Below are positions 25,977 to 31,731 of a DNA stretch of 64,000 bases, one piece after another. The position numbers and the translations under genes are program-made. The DNA is taken from positions 98,349 to 162,348 of the forward strand of contig NZ_JAHBZJ010000009.1 of the NCBI RefSeq assembly GCF_019635455.1, given 5' to 3'. Every line of letters starts with the position of its first letter. The first letter of the stretch is position 1. The notes beneath the pieces are model-generated. The model saw only the letters and a program-made list of their open reading frames with translations, did no database searches and had not been told where the DNA came from. The stretch comes from Sphingomonas sp. (GTDB taxonomy: Bacteria; Pseudomonadota; Alphaproteobacteria; Sphingomonadales; Sphingomonadaceae).

Positions 25977-26207
25977 GTGAAGAAAGACACGCACCCCGCC
26001 TATCACATGATCAAGGTGCAGATGACCGACGGCACCGTGTTCGAAACCCGCTCCACCTGGGGTAAGGAAGGCGACACAATGCAGCTCGACATCGATCCGC
26101 TGGCGCATCCGGCATGGACCGGCGGCACCAAGCAGCTGCTGGATGCCGGTGGCCAGGTGGCGCGCTTCAACAAGCGCTTTGGCGGGCTTTCGCTCGGCAA
26201 GAAGTGA
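25977..26207 (+). CDS. rpmE: 50S ribosomal protein L31 (no CxxC motifs)
   Basis: [40 protein letters not shown]; GTG start. Confidence 0.97.
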
Positions 26208-26226
26208 TCGCGCGGGGCTGACGGCG

Positions 26227-26241
26227 TTAACGCGCCGTTAG
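26227..26241. promoter_or_regulatory. CtrA-like box upstream of the PilZ gene
   Basis: TTAA-cgcgccg-TTAG, one mismatch to TTAA-N7-TTAA, 24 bp before the ATG; TTAA is rare at this GC content. Confidence 0.55.
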
Positions 26242-26264
26242 CCATCGCAGCCTAGGCTTGCCCC

Positions 26265-26594
26265 ATGGTTTCATCGGGCAAGCGCAGCTTTACGGCAGAA
26301 TTCGAACCCGCGGTGCTCGGCCGGCGGCGCAGTCCGCGCGCGCCGGTGTCGCTGGACGCGCGGGTGGGACGCGGCGGTCTGGACCGCGCGCTGTGCAAGG
26401 TGGTCGATCTGTCGTTGAACGGCGCGAAGATCGAAACCTTTTCCGAACTGCGCCGCGACAGCGTGATCTGGCTGACCCTGCCGCGCGTCGGCCATTGGGC
26501 CGCGCGGGTGGTATGGTCCACCGATTTCGAGGCTGGCCTGGAATTCCAGATCGCGCTGACCGAAGAGGATTTCGAAGCGCTCACCGCCAGCTGA
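26265..26594 (+). CDS. Stand-alone PilZ domain (c-di-GMP receptor)
   Basis: RRRSPR (RxxxR) and DLSLNGA (D/NxSxxG) motifs, C-terminal AGLEF. Confidence 0.9.
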   Translation: MVSSGKRSFTAEFEPAVLGRRRSPRAPVSLDARVGRGGLDRALCKVVDLSLNGAKIETFSELRRDSVIWLTLPRVGHWAARVVWSTDFEAGLEFQIALTEEDFEALTAS

Positions 26595-26667
26595 TCGCCG
26601 GATCATCGGGCAGTCCGGCCGGACGCATGATGATCGCGGCAACCCGCTTGCCCGTTTCGGTCCGTCG

Positions 26668-27684
26668 CTATTCGCGCACCGGGACGCAGGGGCGCAGCGA
26701 GCCGCAGGCGCTGCCGGCTTCCGCGCTCGACGCGAACGGCCCCACCAGAACCTTGGTCAGACGCCCCGATTTCACGTAGAAGACCCGGCGGCCCGGAAAG
26801 CGCCCGGCCACCTGTCCCCACAGTTTCTGCGCATTGCCCGGCTCGCCGAACGCGCCCAGCTGAACCTTCCACCCCCCGTCGCGGACCGCCGTCGGTTCGG
26901 CGGCGGCCGGGGGCGGGGCGGCGGGCTGGGGAGCGGGGCGCTTCGGCGCGGGGCGGACGATCGGCGGCATCGGCTGCGCCTCCGCGACCTGCGCCGGCGG
27001 CGTGTCCGGCGCAGTCTGGGGCGCCTGATAGGCGGTCGATGGCGGCAATTCGGTGCGGCCGATCGGGCGGGTCGGTCCCGACTTCACGGGCGGCGGCGCG
27101 CTCGCAACCTGCGGGCGGCCTTCGTCACGCTCATATTGGCGGGCGAGTTCCAGCGCCTTTTGCCGGTCGGGAAGCGAGATGAACCCATCCATCTGCGCCT
27201 GCGCCTTTCCGGCCTGGGGCAACCCCTTCGCGGTCGCGCGGGCGATCAGCGCATAGGCGCGAACCCAGTCCTTTGCCACGCCGTCGCCATTATAGAGTTG
27301 GACGCCCAGCACATATTGCGCGCGCGGGTCCCCGCGTGCGGCGCCCTTTTCAAGCCATGGCACCGCCTGCATCCGCTTGCCGTTTTCGAACAGGGTCAGG
27401 CCGTAATTGACCTCCGCCTGCGGGTGGCCTTGCAGCGCCGCCTTGCGGAACCATTCCTCTGCCATGCCGGTATCGGCGGGAACGCCGCGACCGAGGCGAT
27501 AGGCCTGGCCGAGGTTGAACTGCGCGTCGGGATCGCCGGCAACGGCCGGCCCCCGCCATTCGGCGATCGCTTTCGCATATTCGCCCCGTTGCCAGGCATC
27601 GACCCCCGCCTTCACATCGGCGAACGCCGGTGCGCCTGCCACTGCGGCCCCCGCCAACAGTGCCGCGACCGTCCATTTCCTCAT
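26668..27684 (-). CDS. Sel1-repeat plus C-terminal SPOR domain protein, secreted
   Basis: Signal peptide; Sel1 repeats (GDPDAQFNLGQAYRLGRGVPAD, GDPRAQYVLGVQLYNGDGV); Pro-rich linker; SPOR motif WKVQLGAFGEPGNA...KVLVGPF. Confidence 0.9.
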   Translation of the reverse strand: MRKWTVAALLAGAAVAGAPAFADVKAGVDAWQRGEYAKAIAEWRGPAVAGDPDAQFNLGQAYRLGRGVPADTGMAEEWFRKAALQGHPQAEVNYGLTLFENGKRMQAVPWLEKGAARGDPRAQYVLGVQLYNGDGVAKDWVRAYALIARATAKGLPQAGKAQAQMDGFISLPDRQKALELARQYERDEGRPQVASAPPPVKSGPTRPIGRTELPPSTAYQAPQTAPDTPPAQVAEAQPMPPIVRPAPKRPAPQPAAPPPAAAEPTAVRDGGWKVQLGAFGEPGNAQKLWGQVAGRFPGRRVFYVKSGRLTKVLVGPFASSAEAGSACGSLRPCVPVRE

Positions 27685-27748
27685 CCGCAAGTCCCCGATC
27701 CCATCGCCGGCGATCATGCCAGCTAACCCCCGTCTGGCCAAGTCATGG

Positions 27749-27812
27749 TTACCCACAGCTTAAGATCAGGATGGGACAGGGCGGCGAACGGGTGGCGTTA
27801 ACGGCTTCTTAG
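27749..27812. promoter_or_regulatory. Two CtrA-like boxes in the divergent promoter between the Sel1-SPOR and ParA genes
   Basis: TTAC-N7-TTAA at 27749-27763 and TTAA-N7-TTAG at 27798-27812. Confidence 0.6.
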
Positions 27813-27863
27813 GGTCCGACTGGCAATCCAGCATCGGGTAACCGGGATTTTTTCGAGGGGTAG

Positions 27864-28577
27864 ATGCGCGTACTGGCGATGGCATCGCAGAAAGGCGGAT
27901 CGGGCAAGACGACGCTGAGCGGACACCTGGCGGTGCAGGCTCAGCGCGCGGGTGCCGGCCCCGTCGTCCTGATCGACATCGATCCCCAGGGGTCGCTGTC
28001 GGATTGGTGGAACGAGCGCGAGACGGAGTTTCCCGCTTTTGCCCAGACCACGGTCGCGCGGCTCGCCGCCGATCTGGAGGTGCTTCGCCAGCAGGGCTTT
28101 CGCCTGGCGGTGATCGATACGCCCCCGGCCATCACCATGGCGATCCAGAGCGTGATCCAGGTCGCCGAACTCATCGTCATTCCGACGCGCCCCAGCCCGC
28201 ACGATCTGCGCGCCGTGGGCGCCACGGTCGATCTGTGCGATCGTGCCGGCAAGCCGCTGTTGTTCGTGGTCAACGCCGCGACACCCAAGGCGAAGATCAC
28301 CAGCGAGGCGGCGGTCGCGCTGTCGCAGCACGGGACGGTTGCGCCGGTCACGCTGCATCACCGCACCGATTTCGCCGCGTCGATGATCGACGGGCGCACG
28401 GTGATGGAGATCGATCCCAACGGCAAATCGGCCGGTGAGGTCGTGGCGCTATGGTCGTATATCAACGACCGGCTGGAAAAGAATTTTCGTCGCACCGTCT
28501 TCACCGCCCCGGCCGCGCCCCAGGCGGTATTCGCCGGGCGTCCGCAGGGTGGCTTCGGCCGCCGGGTGGTGAGCTGA
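27864..28577 (+). CDS. Short ParA/MinD-family ATPase (type Ib/ParF-like)
   Basis: Deviant Walker A SQKGGSGKTT, DIDPQGS, Walker B VIDTPP, PTRPSPHDL; no N-terminal HTH; C-terminal GGFGRR tail. Confidence 0.92.
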   Translation: MRVLAMASQKGGSGKTTLSGHLAVQAQRAGAGPVVLIDIDPQGSLSDWWNERETEFPAFAQTTVARLAADLEVLRQQGFRLAVIDTPPAITMAIQSVIQVAELIVIPTRPSPHDLRAVGATVDLCDRAGKPLLFVVNAATPKAKITSEAAVALSQHGTVAPVTLHHRTDFAASMIDGRTVMEIDPNGKSAGEVVALWSYINDRLEKNFRRTVFTAPAAPQAVFAGRPQGGFGRRVVS

Positions 28578-29128
28578 TGTTCGGCAACGCCAAGCCCGCC
28601 GCGTCGCTCTCTTCCGGGCTTCTCGCCCGCAAGGGGCAGGCGCGCCCCGCGATGCGCCCCCAGGGTTTTGTCGGCCTCGATCCCGGCACGTCGCTCGATG
28701 ATCTGGGCTGGAACGATATGGGCGACGACGCACCGCCGCCCGTTCCCGCGCCGACGCATCTGACGCCGCCCGCACCGGCCCCGGCTTCCGCGCCCGTTCC
28801 GCCCGTCGTGGCGCAGCGTGAGGCGCTGGAGCAGCATTATTCGCCACAGCCGGTCGCCGCCGCGCCCGAGCCGGACAGTGCGGCGCCGAAGCCGCCGGTT
28901 TCCAATGCGACCGCCGCGCGCATCAAGCGCGAAGTGACCGCGAAGAAGGGGAAGGCCGCCTTTACGCTGCGGCTCGACAACGAACGCCATCTCAAGCTGC
29001 GCCTCGCCTCGGCGGTCTCCGGCCGCTCGGCCCAGCTTCTCGTGACCGAGGCGCTTGACGCGTTTCTTGAAACTCTGCCCGAAGTCGGTGCGCTGGTCAG
29101 CCAGCTGCCGCTCGGGAAGGCTCGTTGA
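28577..29128 (+). CDS. Hypothetical protein with a C-terminal ribbon-helix-helix-like domain (ParG/CopG-like)
   Basis: TGATG coupling to the ParA stop; Pro-rich middle region; KAAFTLRLDNERHLKLRLASAVSGRSAQLLVTEALDAFL. Confidence 0.75.
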   Translation: MFGNAKPAASLSSGLLARKGQARPAMRPQGFVGLDPGTSLDDLGWNDMGDDAPPPVPAPTHLTPPAPAPASAPVPPVVAQREALEQHYSPQPVAAAPEPDSAAPKPPVSNATAARIKREVTAKKGKAAFTLRLDNERHLKLRLASAVSGRSAQLLVTEALDAFLETLPEVGALVSQLPLGKAR

Positions 29129-29145
29129 TCAGGGGGATTTGAGCC

Positions 29146-30522
29146 ATGACCGCACGTCGTTTCCTTACCATCGGGGCTTCCGCCCTGGTTCTCGCCATGC
29201 CGATCGTCGGCGGGCCGTCGCTGATCGGTGGCCTCGCCATCGCCGGTGCGAAGGTCGAGACAGTGGACGCCAAAAAGGCGTCCGAAGAGGCCAAGGCGGC
29301 GCAGAAAGCGCTCAAGAAGGGTAATGCCCAGCTCGCCGTGACCCATGCCGAAGCGGCGGTGACGTTCGATCCGACCAATGGCCCCTATCGCCAGCTGCTG
29401 GGCGAAACCTATCTGGCCGCCGGTCGATTCATGTCGGCGGCGCAGGCGCTCAACGAGGCGCTGTCGCTCGATCCCGCGAACGGTCGGATCGCGCTGAACC
29501 TGGCGCTGGCGCAGATCGCCACCGGGGCGTGGGGTGATGCCCGCCAGACTCTGGAAGTCCACGCCGCGACGATCCCCGCGAGCGATCGCGGCCTTGCGCT
29601 CGCGCTGGCCGGTGATCCGGCGGGTGCGGTCGCGATGCTCGCCGATGCCGCGCGCCAGCCGGGTGCGGACGCCAAGACGCGCCAGAATCTGGCGCTGAGC
29701 CTGGCGCTGGCCGGCCAGTGGCCGCAGGCGCGTGCCGTAGCCGCGATCGACCTGTCGCCCGACCAGCTCGACAACCGCATGATGCAATGGGCCAGCTTTT
29801 CGCGGCCGCAGAACGCCTATGACCAGGTTGCGAGCCTGCTCGGCGTGACGCCGGTCGCGGACAATGGCCAGCCCCAGCGGCTGGCGCTCGCCCGTTCGAT
29901 GGCGCCGGCAATGGCGGCACAGGGGGTTCCCGATCCGGTCGACGCCTATATGCCCGGCGCGACGCCGGCGGCGCCCGCCGCGCCGGTTGCCGCCGCAGTC
30001 GAACCCGCGCCGGCCGGCGACGTGGCGATGACGGCGGAAACGCCGGCACCCGCGATCACCTCGCCCAGCGGCGTGCAGATCGTGTTCGCGCCCCGCAAGG
30101 AGATCGTTCAGGCCATTCCCGCCGCCGCGGTGAAGCCGGTCGCCGTCGCAAAGGTCGAAGCCGTCGGTTCGGCGCGACCGCTCCGAGTCGAACCGGTGGC
30201 AGAGAAGGTTGAGGCACGCTCGCCCGCGAAGGGCAGCTGGTTCGTCCAGCTGGGCGCCTATGACAGCAGCGGCGTGGCCAGGGACGCCTGGGGCCGGGCG
30301 GTCAAGGGCGCGCCCGTGCTGAAGGGCCTGACCCCATCGACCATGGTGGCAAGCACGAAGGCCGGGACGTTCCATCGCCTGTCGGTTGGCGGCTTCGCCC
30401 GTGCCGATGCCGACGCGGTATGCGGCAAGGTGCGCGCGGCCGGGGGCAAGTGCTTTGTCCGTACCGGCAAGGGCGACACCACCGCCAGCTGGGCCAAGGG
30501 CGCACAGCGCGCATCGCGCTGA
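29146..30522 (+). CDS. TPR plus C-terminal SPOR domain protein, membrane-anchored or secreted
   Basis: N-terminal hydrophobic segment; TPR-like helices (LLGETYLAAGRFMSA, RQNLALSLALAGQW); SPOR motif WFVQLGAYDS...FHRLSVGGF; Cys pair near the C-terminus. Confidence 0.88.
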   Translation: MTARRFLTIGASALVLAMPIVGGPSLIGGLAIAGAKVETVDAKKASEEAKAAQKALKKGNAQLAVTHAEAAVTFDPTNGPYRQLLGETYLAAGRFMSAAQALNEALSLDPANGRIALNLALAQIATGAWGDARQTLEVHAATIPASDRGLALALAGDPAGAVAMLADAARQPGADAKTRQNLALSLALAGQWPQARAVAAIDLSPDQLDNRMMQWASFSRPQNAYDQVASLLGVTPVADNGQPQRLALARSMAPAMAAQGVPDPVDAYMPGATPAAPAAPVAAAVEPAPAGDVAMTAETPAPAITSPSGVQIVFAPRKEIVQAIPAAAVKPVAVAKVEAVGSARPLRVEPVAEKVEARSPAKGSWFVQLGAYDSSGVARDAWGRAVKGAPVLKGLTPSTMVASTKAGTFHRLSVGGFARADADAVCGKVRAAGGKCFVRTGKGDTTASWAKGAQRASR

Positions 30523-31731
30523 TCAGCGTATCTCGATCCCGCCCTTGAAGAGGCGCAGCGCCCTGCCCTGAACGGGCAGGCGATCGAACGGGGTGTTGCC
30601 GGCCTTGCCCGGCATCGCGTCCGCGTCGATCTGCCAGGGCGCGCCCTCGTCGATCAGGGCGAGATCGGCCGGCATCCCCGGCTCGAGCGTACCCGCCCCG
30701 ATCCCCAACAGCGTCGCCGGCGCGCGCGCGACCAGGTCGAACAGGCGCGGCAGGGCGATATGGCCGTCGCGCACCAGCCCAAGCCCCAGCGCGAGCAGCG
30801 TCGCCGCACCCGCCATGCCGGGCGTCGCATCGGCGAAGGGCAGGCGTTTTTCCTCCGGACCGCGCGGGTCGTGGCCCGAGCACAGGATGTCGATCGTGCC
30901 GTCGGCCAGTGCGGCGAGCGCCGCCCGTCGATCCGCTTCGTCGCGAAGCGGCGGGGAGAGCCGCGCAAAGGTGCGGAAATCACTCACCGCATTGTCCGAA
31001 AGCAACAGATGCGCGGGGGTGATGCCACAGGTCGCGCTCACCCCGCGGGCCTTTGCCGCGCGGATCAGGTCGAACCCGGCGGCGGTCGTGACCTGACGAA
31101 AATGGATCGCCGCGCCGGTCTCTTCGGCCAGGATCAGGTCACGCGCCACCGCCAGCGCTTCGGCGATCGCCGGCGCGGCGGGCAGCCCCAGTCGGGTCGC
31201 CGCCTCACCCTCGGTCGCGACCGCATGGCCGGCCAGCCCGCCATCCTCCGCATGGGAAATGACCGTCAGGCGGCAATCGCGGGCGTAAGCGAGCACCCGC
31301 CGCATGACCCCCGAATCGGCGATCCAGCCGCGCCCGGTCGCGACCGCGCGTGCGCCGGCACCCGCATTGGTTGCATATTCGGCAAGATCGGTGCCGGCGA
31401 GTCCGCGCGTCGCGGCGGCGATCGGGTGGACCCACAGTTCGGGCTTGCCCATGTCGGCGGCGCGCTGGACGATACCGGGACCGTCGAGCACCGGCGCCTG
31501 ATCGGGCATCAGGCCGACACGGGCGATACCACCGGCGCGGCACGCGGCCTTGTCCACCGCGAACACCCCCAGATCGGTGAGGGCGGGGGCGAGGATCCGG
31601 CCGCGACAATCGATCGCCTCCGCACCGTCCGGCGCCTGTGCCACGATCCGGCCATCGACGACATGGAGCGCGCCGGGGCGTTCGCCGGCGAGCGGACACA
31701 CGATCCGCGCATTGGTGAAGCTCAGCCTCAT
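30523..31731 (-). CDS. pyrC: Dihydroorotase-like protein, probably inactive PyrC' (structural ATCase subunit)
   Basis: Amidohydrolase family sequence coupled to pyrB, but the HxH metal motif reads DLGVF and the catalytic-Asp motif (TDHAP) reads SGHDP. Confidence 0.85.

Follow-up and report, generated by a model that had tools for sequence, protein, structure and literature searches.

This study concerns a four-gene module in a 64,000-nucleotide stretch of Sphingomonas sp. DNA (contig NZ_JAHBZJ010000009.1, positions 98,349 to 162,348; hereafter the window, in whose numbering positions are given). The module encodes a small ParA ATPase, an adaptor protein that ends in a domain of the ribbon-helix-helix (RHH) type, and two exported SPOR-domain proteins, Sel1-SPOR and TPR-SPOR. 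Sequence comparison indicates that the ParA/adaptor pair is a domesticated, vertically inherited type Ib partition pair, not a relic, and that it forms part of an order-wide four-gene block with the two exported SPOR proteins. We base domestication on the single copy found in 126 of 151 Sphingomonadales genomes, on a clade of its own, on the gain of a ParA tail and an adaptor linker, and on the lack of rep or mobile genes nearby. We give an even chance to a functional reading in which the pair would work as a ParA/adaptor ratchet on adaptor-bound chromosomal DNA, co-expressed in predivisional cells with two septal-wall-binding proteins and tied to late segregation or division.

On plasmids, type Ib ParA/RHH systems belong to the textbook machinery. 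We compared the window ParA with this family and found that residues 1-197 aligned end to end with TP228 ParF (4dzz, 5u1g), that the deviant Walker A motif KGGSGKTT was present, and that an N-terminal helix-turn-helix was missing, as is typical of the small ParAs of type Ib. The NCBIfam ParA_partition score was 165 bits, just below the equivalog cut-off of 180. Homology strongly implies an intact ParF-type ATPase with a deviant Walker A. Assignment to MipZ, the ParB-dependent FtsZ inhibitor, was rejected: the Pfam MipZ model matched residues 3-52 only (28.9 bits), and a true full-length MipZ is encoded elsewhere in the genome (C2:25020-25763, 373 bits). FGRR-type C-terminal tails were present in most chromosomal RHH-partnered relatives of this ParA and, in the tail comparison, in none of the nine plasmid ParAs examined.

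The adaptor carries an N-terminal peptide of consensus LLARKGxAxP, in which K19, G20, A22 and P24 were invariant across 31 aligned chromosomal and plasmid partners. R132, the arginine of the RHH beta-strand, was nearly invariant among them. When the profile of this alignment was compared with the PDB, the top matches were RHH proteins only (56B, ParG 1p94 at E 5.7e-4, CopG, PutA and omega), and the Pfam models RHH_10 and Antitox_RHH matched 17 and 15 of the 31 partners, respectively. The AlphaFold model of the adaptor was confident only at residues ~130-170 (pLDDT 81-92), where two helices follow an extended segment, and the remainder looked disordered. A Foldseek search with this model gave nothing significant; Arc, AtaR and CdbA came up at E ≥7 only. 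Since Foldseek found no significant match and AlphaFold was confident for the two helices only, the RHH call is made from the sequence profile. Homology strongly implies that the adaptor is a dimeric RHH DNA-binding protein and that the LLARKGxAxP peptide is its ParA-docking, ATPase-activating element. No other credible protein with the docking peptide was found in this genome, leaving the adaptor as its sole carrier. Two further motifs were seen in the adaptors. DDLGWNDMG, a second invariant motif following the docking peptide (28697-28723, residues 41-49), occurred in 30/30 aligned Sphingomonas adaptors and was absent from other families. In most RHH adaptors from beyond the genus and the sister genus nearest to it, the C-terminus is a conserved CxCL, about 12 residues past the RHH domain (loci L036-L042, L016, L017, L024-L026, L028 and L035). 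This motif could bind a metal or be redox-active in the dimer; the window adaptor has no CxCL.

The plasmid relationship was examined with a tblastn search of ParA against 72,556 plasmids. The results revealed ParAs of 55-65% identity, usually adjoining rep genes, on small plasmids of Comamonas, Deefgea, Xanthomonas, Acidiphilium, Pseudomonas, E. coli and other hosts. The small gene 3' of these ParAs encodes 84-114 residues with the same N-terminal motif (e.g. LSAGLIAKKGQAVPA) and a C-terminal beta-alpha-alpha segment. Relative to the plasmid proteins, the chromosomal ParA has ~40 additional C-terminal residues (the FGRR tail) and the adaptor an additional Pro-rich linker of ~100 residues. A preliminary description of the window had recognised a type Ib (ParF/ParG) architecture, and these real plasmid cassettes, homologous in both genes, bear it out. 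Because the homology covers ParA, the N-terminal peptide and the RHH domain, the window locus is best read as a domesticated type Ib partition pair. In two plasmids, Xanthomonas pXCV19 (L053 3422-3468) and an Acidiphilium plasmid (L054 3380-3408), AAAGCACG-type repeats with 16-bp spacing lie just upstream of parA and are candidate centromere or operator sites of this partner family.

A ParA orthologue was present in 126/151 Sphingomonadales genomes from ten families, always as a single match and at 57-91% identity; absence is overcounted here, as at least three of the 25 no-match genomes were searched without ~5.4 kb of their sequence. No frequent frameshifts were seen: the orthologue matches contained no internal stops, and coupled reading frames and motifs were intact. 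The best TPR-SPOR match lay within ~3.5 kb downstream on the same strand as ParA in about 96 of these 126 genomes at the least, among them 36/36 of the window's family. The count is a hand tally and a lower bound, two loci that were negative at E 1e-6 being positive by direct comparison. A Sel1-SPOR orthologue was divergent from ParA in most Sphingomonadales loci examined, and all four genes were co-conserved across the order, in line with the preliminary reading. The outer flanks (pyrB, ruvX) were common to the window's family only and differed between families, and the persistence of the module beside changing flanks indicates a four-gene block kept through rearrangements. In a ParA tree rooted on ParAs of 33-40% identity, the SPOR-linked ParAs formed one clade (support 99) of 17 Sphingomonadales loci and two from other orders. 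A second Sphingomonadales group (family f4) was separate and grouped weakly with three plasmid ParAs. Clades of plasmid and of chromosomal ParAs interleave, so that this tree does not tell which way transfer went.

The 179-bp divergent region between Sel1-SPOR and ParA contains two CtrA-type boxes. At 27749-27763 (TTACCCACAGCTTAA) and 27798-27812 (TTAACGGCTTCTTAG), each has one mismatch to TTAA-N7-TTAA. With the longer motif TTAA-N7-TTAAC and at most one mismatch, the window held four matches against 0.55 expected, a number reached in 0/100 shuffles; the remaining two matches are both strands of one palindromic site (26226-26242) upstream of a PilZ gene. Genome-wide, the same search gave only 45 matches in 3.15 Mb, mostly intergenic, including regions upstream of ctrA itself and of a cheA operon. 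The proximal box (GTTAACC..TTCTTA) was found in 14/15 aligned loci of the genus and nearest sister genus, and a 9-position match to it in 12/18 upstream regions of the same two genera (shuffle chance ≤0.04). In the genus alignment a TGGCA.TCC element, possibly the -10, was conserved 3' of the proximal box, and the distal box appeared only as a moderately conserved, half-site-like TTAC/TTAGC element. Other Sphingomonadales families have a TTTAC-N6-TTAAC form further upstream, and the box was mostly absent upstream of relatives outside the SPOR-linked clade. A consensus scan of 26150-30700 detected no sigma-70-like promoter and no terminator, which would fit activator-dependent promoters and a three-gene operon. 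The boxes thus lie where the preliminary description had put them and are commoner than chance. Its further claim of CtrA-driven cell-cycle regulation was not borne out beyond the motif: CtrA binding and such regulation at this locus are predicted from the boxes only, with their conservation and the motif class at ctrA and cheA in favour. A role of the TTAAC boxes as simple adaptor operators was set aside, because motifs of this class are found at ctrA and cheA as well and because TTAAC elements persist between the SPOR genes of G022, a congener that has no adaptor. The palindromic box (TTAACGCGCCGTTAGC) is a third CtrA-type site within 1.6 kb. The PilZ-domain gene that it precedes by 23 bp (26265-26594) stands alone and does not adjoin the module in the other loci examined.

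SPOR domains bind denuded septal glycan. Pfam scores confirmed the domains of both proteins of the module: Sel1 55 bits and SPOR 51.1 bits in Sel1-SPOR, and TPR_19 51 bits and SPOR 36.6 bits in TPR-SPOR (SPOR cut-off 21). Both start with signal sequences and are predicted to be wholly periplasmic, with no cytoplasmic part. The N-terminus of TPR-SPOR is hydrophobic (signal or anchor), and in other families the protein is usually a lipoprotein. Neither is FtsN of the Caulobacter type: on NF050813, whose cut-off is 300 bits, they reach 31 and 45 bits. Nor are they bitopic; the bitopic FtsN-like protein of this genome is encoded on C15, around 223 kb.

A partition pair lying between SPOR genes and behind cell-cycle-type boxes suggests, at the level of sequence, a link of the nucleoid to cell division. 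In the ratchet reading, ATP-bound ParA dimers would coat the nucleoid, and DNA-bound adaptor would trigger ParA hydrolysis via its tethered N-terminal peptide. The resulting diffusion-ratchet would position or separate adaptor-bound chromosomal DNA. The operon would fire from CtrA-type promoters in predivisional cells, alongside TPR-SPOR and Sel1-SPOR; being expressed there with proteins that bind septal glycan, it would work at about the time of constriction, e.g. by clearing or ordering DNA at the closing septum.

Several results weigh against this ratchet reading. A repeat search of 27600-27900 found no centromere-like iterons, unlike in the plasmid homologues, and only TTAAC-type boxes were conserved upstream of ParA. 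A locus tied to ori or ter was rejected: in ten complete genomes it lay at ~4% to 50% of the chromosome from parB (three genomes of the genus, ~37-50%; four others, 22-24%; one, 44%; two, 4-5%). Parts of two Sphingomonadales families have no ParA/adaptor pair, and three congeners depart from the block. In G022 (99% complete) the two SPOR genes are divergent and ~230 bp apart, and ParA and adaptor are both missing, G329 (100% complete, 2 contigs) has TPR-SPOR beside serB with ParA and adaptor both absent, and G004 lacks the adaptor and keeps a ParA of 72% identity with its FGRR tail. The pair is thus separable from the SPOR genes and dispensable in some lineages. FGRR-tailed ParA/RHH pairs in other alphaproteobacterial orders adjoin unrelated genes, mostly without a CtrA box. 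The preliminary description had coupled a ParA gradient to peptidoglycan through periplasmic TPR/Sel1 scaffolds. This part of it was not supported: both window SPOR proteins are predicted to be periplasmic only, with nothing physically joining them to ParA, and since the adaptor is the sole carrier of the peptide, there is no physical ParA-peptidoglycan route at this locus. Here the SPOR link consists of predicted co-expression and of synteny, with no physical bridge.

A candidate physical link was found in relatives. A sister ParA clade (support 96) occurs in four class-level loci and in Parvibaculum contigs, and its tails end in GAA, not FGRR. The start codon of a partner gene overlaps or abuts the stop of each of these ParAs. 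The partner has 300-330 residues: the same N-terminal motif as in the adaptors (e.g. LTSDLLVRKGEATPS) comes first, then an acidic linker, a single transmembrane helix, a stretch rich in Pro and Ala and, at the C-terminus, a SPOR domain; it has no DNA-binding domain. Database names place the partners in Parvibaculum and Rhodobiaceae, and the genomes that hold them additionally hold an RHH-type pair. Since the docking peptide is here used on a membrane protein predicted to bind the septal wall, the sister clade appears to be an independent link of the ParA family to septal peptidoglycan, and the relation between this family and SPOR proteins appears to be functional and more than an accident of synteny. 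An identity with FtsN was rejected for these partners (29-51 bits against the 300-bit cut-off), better FtsN candidates being encoded elsewhere in those genomes. As to an origin by fusion with the downstream TPR-SPOR gene, the partner's SPOR domain resembles TPR-SPOR and the FtsN-like protein to the same degree. The loci of this type (L063 4297-5978; L019, L023, L030, L032) have a chromosomal setting with bioB, bioA, HAD, P450 and MMPL genes.

From this sister clade comes a broader proposal, which we put forward tentatively and regard as doubtful: that the ParA family is a device of Alphaproteobacteria for coupling nucleoid to septum, in which one docking peptide switches a nucleoid-bound ParF-like ATPase and is carried either on a DNA-bound RHH adaptor (Sphingomonadales, alongside co-expressed secreted SPOR proteins) or on a septum-anchored transmembrane SPOR protein (Parvibaculales and others), and that it coordinates constriction with the clearing or ordering of chromosomal DNA in the division plane. 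If so, constriction would be sensed as denuded peptidoglycan, and ParA would provide a counterpart of nucleoid occlusion and of safeguards of the FtsK type. The peptide-transmembrane-SPOR variant offers a simple experimental entry, with one peptide, one ATPase and one septal anchor.

Other explanations of the window locus were weighed. The pair might be a regulatory module in which the RHH protein mainly represses the divergent promoter with ParA as an ATP-dependent co-repressor, tuning the two SPOR genes and positioning nothing. Type Ib RHH partners such as ParG and omega are known autorepressors, the adaptor is apparently co-transcribed with TPR-SPOR and faces Sel1-SPOR, the repeat search gave no centromere-like iterons, and the block stays intact while its flanks change. 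However, ATPase motifs and an invariant peptide kept across the order at 57-91% ParA identity exceed the needs of a co-repressor, SPOR genes do not adjoin the homologous pairs of other orders, the transmembrane SPOR partners have nothing with which to bind DNA, and G022 retains SPOR genes and TTAAC elements without the pair; we consider this explanation unlikely. We also judge it improbable that the RHH domain is a dimerisation or protein-binding module with which ParA positions a non-DNA polar or septal complex, as in McdAB, PomXYZ and ParC/ParP. The RHH domain retains R132 and matches DNA-binding RHH proteins, and the only co-conserved cargo candidates are periplasmic SPOR proteins beyond the adaptor's reach, even though orphan ParAs often move protein cargo, the long disordered linker, the DLGWNDM motif of the genus and the CxCL end of other families could be protein contacts, and the sister-clade partner is a membrane SPOR protein.

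That a plasmid par cassette was inserted between two SPOR genes in an ancestor and has persisted as an inert relic without host function is very improbable. Close plasmid homologues do exist, plasmid and chromosomal ParA clades interleave in the tree, and the pair has been cleanly lost from two congeners and the adaptor from a third. An unselected cassette, however, would not outlast order-level divergence, whereas this one is single-copy in 126/151 genomes of ten families at 57-91% identity, with motifs intact, frames coupled and no stop inside any ParA orthologue match. It has also gained a lineage-specific tail and linker and has no rep, mob or integrase genes nearby. Replacement of Min or MipZ by the pair was rejected as well, for want of a complementary presence pattern. 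MinD was found in 0/151 Sphingomonadales genomes searched and MipZ in 141/151, including this genome and those without the ParA/adaptor pair, so the pair replaces neither.

We then compared the module with known systems. TP228 ParF/ParG/parH, other type Ib plasmid cassettes and pSM19035 delta/omega share with it a short ParA without an N-terminal DNA-binding domain, and type Ib cassettes also share a partner with a flexible N-terminal tail and a C-terminal RHH domain and the translational coupling of the two genes. The window pair differs from these cassettes in being chromosomal, single-copy and vertically inherited across an order, in serving no plasmid replicon, in having no iterated centromere that we found, in its ParA tail of ~40 and adaptor linker of ~100 residues, and in its predicted co-transcription with a SPOR protein behind CtrA-type boxes. 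MipZ, PomXYZ, McdAB, ParC/ParP and PpfA are likewise chromosomal ParA-family ATPases with a dedicated adaptor, presumably using the nucleoid as matrix, but the window ParA belongs to none of these families and its adaptor combines an RHH domain with a docking peptide of plasmid type. The partners of the sister clade (Parvibaculum, Rhodobiaceae) share with the bitopic proteins FtsN, DedD, DamX and Sinorhizobium RgsS the topology of a short cytoplasmic N-terminus, one transmembrane helix, a Pro-rich linker and a SPOR domain; they differ in that their cytoplasmic end is a predicted ParA-docking peptide, and the window SPOR proteins differ in not being bitopic. Literature searches found no published description of a ParA/RHH/SPOR module, in agreement with the preliminary view that this is not a characterised system. 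Fixed in the chromosome across an order, the pair would be a clean example of how a segregation machine of mobile elements becomes domesticated, here connected to CtrA-type promoters and SPOR genes and, in a sister version, with the docking peptide on a membrane protein predicted to bind the septal wall. It also offers a testable handle on how late segregation and constriction are coordinated in alphaproteobacteria without Min and known nucleoid-occlusion factors.

The features of the module are listed in Table 1. Gene order, ParA-adaptor coupling, the FGRR tail and the Pro-rich adaptor with its C-terminal RHH domain were all found at the positions of the preliminary description. The adaptor ATG overlaps the ParA stop by one base (ATGA coupling), and the gap from adaptor to TPR-SPOR is 18 bp; gaps between these two genes are short in most families. 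In the adaptor-less congener G004, a TPR-SPOR lipoprotein gene begins one base after ParA (L043 6048-7450). One flank of the module holds the housekeeping genes bamA, skp, fabZ and rpmE and the PilZ gene, and the other a pyrC-like gene, pyrB and ruvX. The locus is on a chromosomal contig, and no parB, rep or mobile genes lie within ~6 kb of the module, as had been noted at the outset.

Table 1. Coordinates of the module's genes, domains and putative regulatory boxes in the window
Feature	Position	Strand	Description
Sel1-SPOR gene	26668..27684	-	338 aa; Sec signal peptide (start MRKW...); divergent from the ParA operon
Distal CtrA-type box	27748..27763	-	minus strand TTAAGCTGTGGGTAAC; 1 mismatch to TTAA-N7-TTAAC; 64 bp upstream of the Sel1-SPOR start
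Proximal CtrA-type box	27797..27812	-	plus strand GTTAACGGCTTCTTAG; ~65 bp upstream of the ParA ATG
ParA ATPase gene	27864..28577	+	short ParF-like ATPase, 237 aa; KGGSGKTT, DIDPQ, VIDTPP
ParA C-terminal extension	28455..28574	+	~40 aa past the ParF core; NFRRTVF ... GGFGRRVVS; Arg-rich
Adaptor gene	28577..29128	+	183 aa; N-terminal peptide, Pro-rich disordered linker, C-terminal RHH
N-terminal peptide motif	28595..28654	+	adaptor residues 7-26, ...SLSSGLLARKGQARPAM; consensus LLARKGxAxP
Ribbon-helix-helix domain	28955..29074	+	adaptor residues ~127-166
TPR-SPOR gene	29146..30522	+	exported protein, 458 aa; third gene of the operon; SPOR domain 30229-30465

Some loci outside the window showed other arrangements. 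A protein of 190-280 residues with a weak, sub-cut-off PAS_5-like match (16.8 bits) follows the pair in two unrelated loci (L024 4780-5472 and L025 7178-8029), and a look-alike of this protein with no Pfam match occupies the adaptor's place in a third (L034 5486-6058). In another genome (G204), two FGRR-tailed ParA/RHH pairs stand in tandem on one contig (L027 6036-9133).

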